Source: Escherichia coli (GTDB taxonomy: Bacteria; Pseudomonadota; Gammaproteobacteria; Enterobacterales; Enterobacteriaceae). Taken from it: a stretch of DNA of 64,000 nt. The position numbers and the translations under genes were made by a program. A model generated the notes under the pieces. It searched no databases. It worked only from the letters and a program-made list of their open reading frames with translations, and was not told where the DNA came from. The stretch is from NCBI RefSeq assembly GCF_024700885.2, contig NZ_CP117016.1; one strand, written 5' to 3'. Below are positions 9,385 to 11,829 of the stretch, piece by piece (within the stretch, counting starts at the first letter, position 1; each line of letters starts with the position of its first letter).

Positions 9385-10752
9385 TTAAAGACTTCTGGAA
9401 GGTTGCGCAGCTCTGACAACACGCGGTTGATCTTCCGCAGCGTCTTCCAGCGCACTTAAATCACGGTCTTTCACTTCTGGCATTTTCAGCGCAGAGATTA
9501 AACCAATCACTGAATATGCCATGATCATAATGGCGATCGGATACCAGGATTCCGTCATGGTGCAGAAAATACCCGCCAGGATAGGACCAAAACCGGAAGC
9601 GATAAGACCACCAATTTCTTTAGAAATCGCCATCCGGGTAAAGCGGTTTTTACAGCCGAACATTTCTGCCATGGTAATGTTTTCCAGAGCAAATAATCCC
9701 AGCACCGCACAGTTATGAATCACAATCAGTGCAACCATAATGGTGCTCGGGGCATAGCTTTTATCTACGATGATAGAAAGCATTGGCCATGCCAGCACAA
9801 TCGCGGAGGTATTCATAATAATATACGGGATCCGGCGACCAATTTTATCGGATAACCAACCAAGGAACGGAATGGTCATAAAGCCGAGAATCGAACTGAT
9901 CATCAATGCATCTGTTGGAATTGCTTTGTTAAACAATAACGTCTGTACTAAATAGCCTGCAAGGAAAGTCTGAATTAAACCGGAGTTACCAGCCTGACCA
10001 AAACGCAGCCCTGTTGCCAGCCAGAAGGATTTGCTCTGGAACATGCTACCAGCAGGTGCAGGTTTTGCTGTCGGTTGGTTGCTGTCGTTAACCTTCTCAA
10101 AGACCGGGCTTTCTTTAAGATTCATACGCAACCAGATAGCAAAGACCATCACGACAACGCTCGCCAGAAACGGTATACGCCATCCCCACGCCAGCAGTTC
10201 TTCTTTACTGAGAATGAAGAACATAAAGGCCCAGATTGCCGTTGCGCTTAAGGTTCCGCAGTTAGTTCCCATAGCCACAAATGAGGAGATAATTCCGCGC
10301 TTACCTTTTGGTGCATATTCCGCCAGCATCGTGCCGGCACCGGAAATTTCCGCGCCTGCCCCCAGCCCCTGAATAATACGCAGCGTCACCAGCAAAATTG
10401 GCGCAAACACACCAATTTGTGCATAGGTCGGCAGCACACCAATTAAGGTGGTACAGATCCCCATCATAGTGATGGTAATAAAGAGCACTTTTTTACGCCC
10501 GATTCTGTCGCCCATTTTGCCGAAAATAAATGCTCCGACAATACGCGCCACATAACCTGCACCGTAGGTTCCCATTGCCAGAATTAACGCCATTGCCGTT
10601 GATGATTCAGGAAAAAATATTTCATGAAACACTAACGCTGCGCCGAGCGAATATAACTGGAAATCCATAAATTCAAGCGCAGTGCCCAGCCATCCCGATA
10701 CTGCTGCTTTCACCAAATCCTTAGTGCTTCTTTCGTGTTTTTCTATTGTCAT
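9385..10752 (-). CDS. ydfJ: MFS transporter YdfJ (intact)
   Basis: 455-aa multi-pass ORF directly adjacent to rspB with no intervening prophage. Confidence 0.85.
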   Translation of the reverse strand: MTIEKHERSTKDLVKAAVSGWLGTALEFMDFQLYSLGAALVFHEIFFPESSTAMALILAMGTYGAGYVARIVGAFIFGKMGDRIGRKKVLFITITMMGICTTLIGVLPTYAQIGVFAPILLVTLRIIQGLGAGAEISGAGTMLAEYAPKGKRGIISSFVAMGTNCGTLSATAIWAFMFFILSKEELLAWGWRIPFLASVVVMVFAIWLRMNLKESPVFEKVNDSNQPTAKPAPAGSMFQSKSFWLATGLRFGQAGNSGLIQTFLAGYLVQTLLFNKAIPTDALMISSILGFMTIPFLGWLSDKIGRRIPYIIMNTSAIVLAWPMLSIIVDKSYAPSTIMVALIVIHNCAVLGLFALENITMAEMFGCKNRFTRMAISKEIGGLIASGFGPILAGIFCTMTESWYPIAIMIMAYSVIGLISALKMPEVKDRDLSALEDAAEDQPRVVRAAQPSRSL

Positions 10753-10809
10753 AATGGTTATCTCTAAAAAAGAGGTAAGATGCGTACTACTTACTCGCCG
10801 TTATTGGTA

Positions 10810-11829
10810 TTATTCAGAAAAAGTGAGTAAGACTTTGCAGCAATGCTTTTGATCCTGTTCAAATAAACTAATGGCATCAGCAACATGCTGGAAATCAAAC
10901 GTATGGGTAATTAATTTTTCTGGTTTAATTAACCCTTTACTTAACCAGTCGATAACGACCGGGAATTTATTTGCATTTAAGCGTGAAGAGAAAATAGAGA
11001 GTTCTTTTCCGGTAATTCCTTGCTGAATCACTTCAGACGGTTCACTGGAGAAGCCCATCAATACAATACGTGCCGCTGGAGAAGCCAGCGTTACGGCCTC
11101 TTTCAGGATAGAAGGATGACAAGCCGCATCGATAATTAATGTCGGCTTTATGCCTTTTTCAGCGAAAATCTCGCCAAGCGGTGTCTGGCTGTTATTAATC
11201 GCCCAGTCAGCCCCGCTCTCTTTCGCTTTTTCCAGTCGTTCATCAATGCGATCGGCAACAATCACATTTTTAACGTTATAGACGCCTTTTAATACCTGAA
11301 CGATCGTCAGGCCGATTGGACCGGCACCGTAAACCAGAACGGTATCATTTTCAGTCGGTTGACCATGACCGGTTACGTTAGCCGCAATGGTAAAAGGTTC
11401 GATCATCACCGCATATTGATCGGCCACTGCTTCAGGAATTTTCCACGCATTTTTTGCCGGAACCACGGCATATTCACTGAAACCACCGTCAGCGTGCACA
11501 CCTAATACAGCCAGTGTCGTACAAACGTTCGGCTTACCTATAGAGCACGGATAGCAATGCCCACAGCTGACCACCGGATCGACAGCAACGCGTTCACCGA
11601 CTCTGGCGCTTTCCACGCCTTCACCCACTGCATCAATGACGCCAAAGAATTCATGTCCAATGACGCGCGGATATTTCGCAAAAGGATTATGCCCACGATA
11701 AATATGGCTATCTGAACCACAAATCCCGGCAAGTTTCACTTTTACTCGTACTTCACCCGCTGACGGGGTGGGTATTTCACGTTCGATAATTGCCAGTTGA
11801 TTCGGTTTTTCAATTAAAATGCTTTTCAT
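10810..11829 (-). CDS. rspB: zinc-dependent dehydrogenase RspB
   Basis: GHEFFG zinc-ADH motif; start trimmed to MKSILIE (339 aa). Confidence 0.9.
   Translation of the reverse strand: MKSILIEKPNQLAIIEREIPTPSAGEVRVKVKLAGICGSDSHIYRGHNPFAKYPRVIGHEFFGVIDAVGEGVESARVGERVAVDPVVSCGHCYPCSIGKPNVCTTLAVLGVHADGGFSEYAVVPAKNAWKIPEAVADQYAVMIEPFTIAANVTGHGQPTENDTVLVYGAGPIGLTIVQVLKGVYNVKNVIVADRIDERLEKAKESGADWAINNSQTPLGEIFAEKGIKPTLIIDAACHPSILKEAVTLASPAARIVLMGFSSEPSEVIQQGITGKELSIFSSRLNANKFPVVIDWLSKGLIKPEKLITHTFDFQHVADAISLFEQDQKHCCKVLLTFSE

Follow-up and report, generated by a model that had tools for sequence, protein, structure and literature searches.

The ydfJ locus

The sequence analyzed here (the window) is a stretch of 64,000 nucleotides from the Escherichia coli contig NZ_CP117016.1 (assembly GCF_024700885.2). 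It contains the gene series rspR, ydfZ, ydfI, ydfJ, rspB, rspA, ynfA, ynfB, and speG, which is the K-12 order without the prophage that interrupts it there. The features of the locus are collected in Table 1. A preliminary description had reported that ydfJ is a full-length open reading frame of 455 amino acids and that it lies 57 bp from rspB, and both statements are borne out by the list of open reading frames and by the sequence itself. The gap between rspA and rspB is even shorter (11 bp), and the genes share the same strand.

The gene assignments are supported by profile matches (NCBIfam). YdfJ matches the metabolite/H+ symporter family TIGR00883 with 462.9 bits (cutoff, 443.45), residues 23 to 418 of the protein covering positions 1 to 400 of the 400-position profile. 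RspB matches NF007489 over positions 1 to 339 of 339 (694.7 bits), RspA scores 742.8 bits against the equivalog of D-mannonate dehydratase (ManD), NF043051 (cutoff, 550), and YdfI scores 646.9 bits against the fructuronate reductase subfamily NF011611 (cutoff, 603). In the complete genome of elppa4 (NZ_CP083512.1), which is 100% identical here, ydfJ is annotated as MHS family MFS transporter YdfJ (WP_000151243.1) and rspB as Zn-dependent oxidoreductase; the identities of rspA and ydfI likewise agree with the elppa4 annotation.

Table 1. Features at the ydfJ-rspB locus, in coordinates of the window
Feature	Position	Strand	Basis
rspR (ydfH), GntR-family regulator of the cluster	6735-7421	+	Annotated in K-12 and elppa4; GntR-family matches
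ydfI, fructuronate-reductase-family oxidoreductase, 486 aa, next downstream of ydfJ	7836-9296	-	NF011611
Hairpin resembling an intrinsic terminator (stem of 12 pairs, then a T run), just past the ydfJ stop	9351-9378	-	
ydfJ, uninterrupted MHS-family MFS transporter gene, 455 aa	9385-10752	-	ORF list, sequence, TIGR00883
11-bp core GAAATCCATAA, one copy, unoccupied attB of Qin-type prophages	10660-10670		ydfJ codons 26-31
rspB-ydfJ spacer, 57 bp, without terminator-like structure	10753-10809	-	Sequence, terminator scan, folding
rspB, Zn-dependent dehydrogenase, 339 aa	10810-11829	-	NF007489 equivalog; ATG at 11829, stop at 10810
rspA, enolase-superfamily D-mannonate dehydratase (ManD) homologue, 404 aa, first of the cluster	11841-13055	-	NF043051

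Position of Qin in K-12

Alignment of the window with K-12 MG1655 revealed that ydfJ and rspB are not contiguous in that strain and that Qin falls where the window is continuous. The preliminary description had expected Qin, with dicF, cspB, cspF, and others, between ydfJ and rspB of K-12. The prophage does separate the two genes, but it lies within the 5' part of the ydfJ coding sequence rather than between ydfJ and rspB. In the annotation of MG1655 (NC_000913.3), Qin is a cryptic prophage of 20.5 kb at 1632277-1652745, situated between a 427-aa ydfJ (b1543) and ynfP/rspB and carrying, among others, ydfK, pinQ, cspI, cspB, cspF, relBE, dicC/A, dicF, dicB, and an intQ pseudogene. By BLAST, window positions 9301-10675 match K-12 up to 1632291 with 97.6% identity, and positions 10657-11900 match K-12 from 1652743 with 98.6% identity; the two K-12 flanks are colinear and overlap at window 10657-10675 with no bases missing.

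The overlap contains the core GAAATCCATAA. K-12 has two copies of it, at 1632277-1632287 and 1652746-1652756, which coincide exactly with the annotated ends of Qin; the window has a single copy, encoding the residues L-E-F-M-D-F of YdfJ. Near-identity to the phage arm continues past the core, to window position 10675. The ydfJ-side core of K-12 shows a one-base difference that might be taken for a mutation of K-12, a reading that we rejected on finding the identical junction in an STEC prophage. Since the difference is common to K-12 and the STEC prophage, it is assigned to the phage arm, which leaves a shared core of 11 bp, not 16 bp. Met29, which lies within the core, is the start codon of the shortened K-12 ydfJ, and this explains the difference in length between the genes (455 versus 427 aa). 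The K-12 gene is without 28 codons, and the N-terminal stub is annotated there as ynfP; the 427-aa YdfJ and the small YnfP of K-12 are two pieces of one ancestral gene.

The interior of Qin gave no blastn match at an E value of ≤1e-3 anywhere in the 64-kb window, and an Rfam scan of the window found no DicF. Together with the single core copy, the blastn result upholds the earlier statement that Qin is absent from this sequence. We attribute both the one core copy and the lack of such phage DNA in the window to the absence of an integration event.

Variation among E. coli genomes

It has been described before that Qin integrates into the 5' end of ydfJ, which thereby loses its promoter and 28 N-terminal codons, and that Qin was present in 48% of 638 strains (PMC6379469). 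In addition, ydfJ has been listed as the integration site of Qin for strains W, K-12, B, and Crooks (PMC3032704), and a 46.8-kb lambda-like prophage is located between ydfJ and rspB in SE11 (PMC2608844). An empty versus an occupied ydfJ is a common strain difference that is already published.

We ran a 200-bp probe centered on the core against 5,426 complete RefSeq E. coli genomes. The probe was unbroken in 2,008 of them (37%), while nearly all remaining genomes were split at the position corresponding to window 10657/10675, so that approximately 62% are interrupted. A longer query of 2.4 kb was contiguous in 2,010 genomes. All of the 40 closest genomes among the matches listed (identity of ≥99%) were contiguous at ydfJ-rspB, and at least 20 complete genomes matched the window with approximately 100% identity along 10 kb that include the site. 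The latter led us to reject the notion that a prophage had been collapsed or dropped during assembly, given that these genomes are independent of one another. The 2,008 complete genomes with an unbroken junction likewise speak against such an artefact, as does the reading frame of ydfJ, which is intact and colinear with orthologues of other genera; we found nothing in favor of an assembly error at this site and consider the chance of one to be practically nil.

In occupied genomes, the first 28 or so codons of ydfJ adjoin rspB, whereas the remainder of the gene lies 20 to 50 kb away and restarts at Met29. A full-size lambdoid prophage is found at the same ydfJ junction in STEC 2014C-3050 (NZ_CP027472.1; positions 21285-41290 of locus L126), with a cargo that includes the type III effector gene nleC, a copy of IS600, and a DinI-like gene. 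These comparisons show that Qin-type phages integrate within the 11-bp core in codons 26 to 31 of ydfJ and thereby split the gene. Presumably, integration proceeds by site-specific recombination at the core, catalyzed by the phage integrase, and it would part the body of ydfJ from its native promoter.

A third allele is present in APEC O1 (NC_008563.1; positions 6001-6413 of locus L125), which has no prophage at the site and carries a 1,015-bp deletion that extends from the core (equivalent to window position 10664) into ydfJ (9649), leaving a 264-nt ydfJ remnant adjoining rspB. This deletion is probably the scar of an imprecise prophage loss. With such scars known at ydfJ in other strains, the junction in the window might be read in the same way, as the product of an imprecise loss that damaged ydfJ. 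The full length of the ydfJ reading frame led us to reject this explanation. Moreover, the gene product aligns with orthologues of other genera from residue 1 to near its C terminus, the annotation of the identical elppa4 genome shows an intact ydfJ, and the K-12 flanks meet without missing bases. A deletion scar at this position would therefore seem extremely improbable.

Gene order outside E. coli

For an outgroup comparison, a degenerate 36-nt pattern across attB was scanned against contigs representing one genome per species, which yielded at least 120 loci, and five proteins of the window were compared with the scanned loci by tblastn. No Escherichia outgroup species (e.g., E. albertii or E. 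fergusonii) was among the matches listed in the pattern scan. The genes rspB and ydfJ adjoin each other on the same strand in at least 64 loci of other Enterobacterales species; among these loci as listed, the spacer between them is 36 to 422 bp long, with a median of 69 bp. The contiguous arrangement is found in Salmonella enterica subsp. arizonae, Citrobacter, Enterobacter, Klebsiella, Raoultella, and Pluralibacter and, furthermore, in Buttiauxella, Pectobacterium, Serratia, Providencia, and Gilliamella. In the outgroup loci, rspA mostly lies on the upstream side of the pair and ydfI and rspR on the downstream side. The N terminus of YdfJ aligns from residue 1 in many outgroups, including the orthologues of Citrobacter, Enterobacter, and Klebsiella.

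From the contiguity in at least 64 outgroup loci it follows that the order rspA-rspB-ydfJ-ydfI is ancestral and, as judged by these sequence comparisons, K-12 is the derived state at the ydfJ locus. The window had been proposed earlier to represent the unoccupied ancestral site. This holds for the gene order, while for the history of the site a never-occupied and a cured locus are indistinguishable by sequence. Our preferred interpretation, to which we assign a probability of roughly 95%, is that the attachment site used by Qin-type lambdoid prophages is unoccupied in the window and lies there within an intact ydfJ, in the ancestral order rspA-rspB-ydfJ-ydfI. None of our findings contradicts the reading of the site as empty.

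Conceivably, the site has been emptied secondarily, a resident Qin-type prophage having been lost by precise excision mediated by integrase and excisionase, with restoration of attB and the ydfJ frame. The interruption of exactly this position in about 62% of complete E. coli genomes speaks for such a history, and the variety of the occupants (the 20.5-kb Qin, the STEC lambdoid prophage with nleC, and the 46.8-kb prophage of SE11) implies repeated gain and turnover. The 1,015-bp deletion in APEC O1, without a prophage, illustrates that loss does occur at the site. Against this, the window holds no positive trace of a former occupant, although precise excision would leave none; the 40 closest genomes are contiguous without exception, and past occupancy need not be assumed given the contiguity in outgroup species. 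We therefore regard curing as possible but rather unlikely.

The N-terminal motif GTALEFMDFQLY of YdfJ includes the phage core and is conserved far outside the Enterobacterales, even in Actinobacteria. Transporters with this motif adjoin genes for RspA-like ManD proteins in Microbacterium, Bifidobacterium, Saccharopolyspora, Mycolicibacterium, Actinotignum, and others. Of 121 motif instances among the matches listed (loci L005 to L124), 25 contain the exact 11-nt core.

Transcription and possible function

A terminator scan of the 57-bp spacer between rspB and ydfJ returned no terminator-like site, and the spacer folds weakly (-6.4 kcal/mol). The 88-nt intergenic region 3' of ydfJ folds at -18.4 kcal/mol and contains the strong terminator-like hairpin listed in Table 1. 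A scan for sigma-70-like promoters gave no convincing score anywhere. Based on these consensus scans and on folding, ydfJ is probably cotranscribed with rspAB in this strain; it would come third, after rspA and rspB, on a transcript terminated at the 9351-9378 hairpin.

The enzymes encoded next to ydfJ (ManD, a Zn-dependent dehydrogenase, and a member of the fructuronate reductase family) point to a putative role of the cluster in sugar-acid catabolism. By extension from these neighbors, YdfJ may be an H+ symporter for uptake of the sugar acid on which RspB, YdfI, and RspA act. The putative substrate of the rspA-rspB-ydfJ-ydfI cluster is L-gulonate. An L-gulonate pathway was reportedly assigned to the rspA-rspB-ydfJ cluster of E. 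coli CFT073 by Wichelecki and coworkers (Wichelecki et al., in 2014) and is said to have been described as cryptic. The rsp/ydf sugar-acid cluster is better studied in strains that have the whole transporter, like the present one.

One might speculate that the prophage hot spot in ydfJ switches a metabolic trait on or off at the level of the population, an idea that we consider doubtful. If it were true, strains with an intact rspA-rspB-ydfJ cluster could import and catabolize L-gulonate or a related sugar acid, whereas uptake would be lost in the approximately 60% of E. coli whose ydfJ harbors a prophage. Carrying a prophage at ydfJ would in that case mean gaining phage-borne genes, such as those for type III effectors, at the price of a catabolic capability.

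Other features of the window

The AI-2 exporter gene tqsA is interrupted by a 15.25-kb element at window 31964-47217, which is flanked by a 9-bp direct repeat, TGCTGTTAT, at 31955-31963 and 47218-47226. According to the annotation of an identical genome, the element encodes a tyrosine integrase, an HTH regulator, an Icd-like protein, a primase, SSB, and a PerC-family regulator. It further encodes the major capsid protein, an HK97 prohead protease, a portal protein, head closure and connector (head-completion) proteins, an HNH endonuclease, and the small and large terminase subunits; the same annotation lists no tail or lysis genes in the element. With this content, it looks like a capsid-forming phage satellite (cfPICI-like). 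A 16.2-kb query spanning the element was covered for at least 80% in only 136 of the 5,426 complete E. coli genomes.

Two smaller features lie elsewhere in the window. Approximately 477 bp of K-12 (1624735-1625211), comprising most of ydeJ, is absent near window 3591-3594, and elppa4 has only an 81-bp gene remnant annotated at the position of ydeJ. The sole Rfam match at the gathering threshold in the whole window is STnc560 (1591-1804, minus strand; 281.9 bits), and its position corresponds to that of K-12 mgrR, downstream of mgtS/mgtT.

Comparison with known loci

The region is appropriately labeled as an intact ydfJ in which the Qin-type attachment site is empty, and not as a deletion or an anomaly. 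The site is also a predicted landing pad for lambdoid phages that target ydfJ, some of which carry virulence effectors. That 62% of genomes are interrupted at exactly this position gives indirect support to its predicted role as a substrate for integrase-mediated integration. The nleC prophage of 2014C-3050 indicates that the ydfJ site is also an entry point for virulence cargo.

Counterparts of the locus include other E. coli strains with an empty site (for example, O25b:H4/ST131-type strains, elppa4, and MLI114), in which ydfJ adjoins rspB and both genes are annotated as intact. They differ from the window in nucleotide-level divergence only, which amounts to about 2.4% for an O25b:H4 genome, elppa4 and MLI114 being approximately 100% identical. 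The rspA-rspB-transporter-ydfI clusters of other Enterobacterales resemble that of the window in order, strand, and short spacers, with protein identities of 63 to 98% across genera. The Qin locus of K-12 MG1655 shares the chromosomal neighborhood from rspR to speG and the same core, and its flanks are 97.6 to 98.6% identical to the window. It differs in having two copies of the core around a 20.5-kb prophage and a 427-aa ydfJ, whereas the window has one copy, no prophage, and a ydfJ of 455 aa. The ydfJ-side junction of the STEC 2014C-3050 prophage has the same sequence as that of K-12 up to the core. In both 2014C-3050 and SE11 (prophage PP_SE11-3), however, the site is filled by a complete or near-complete prophage, whereas in the window it is empty.
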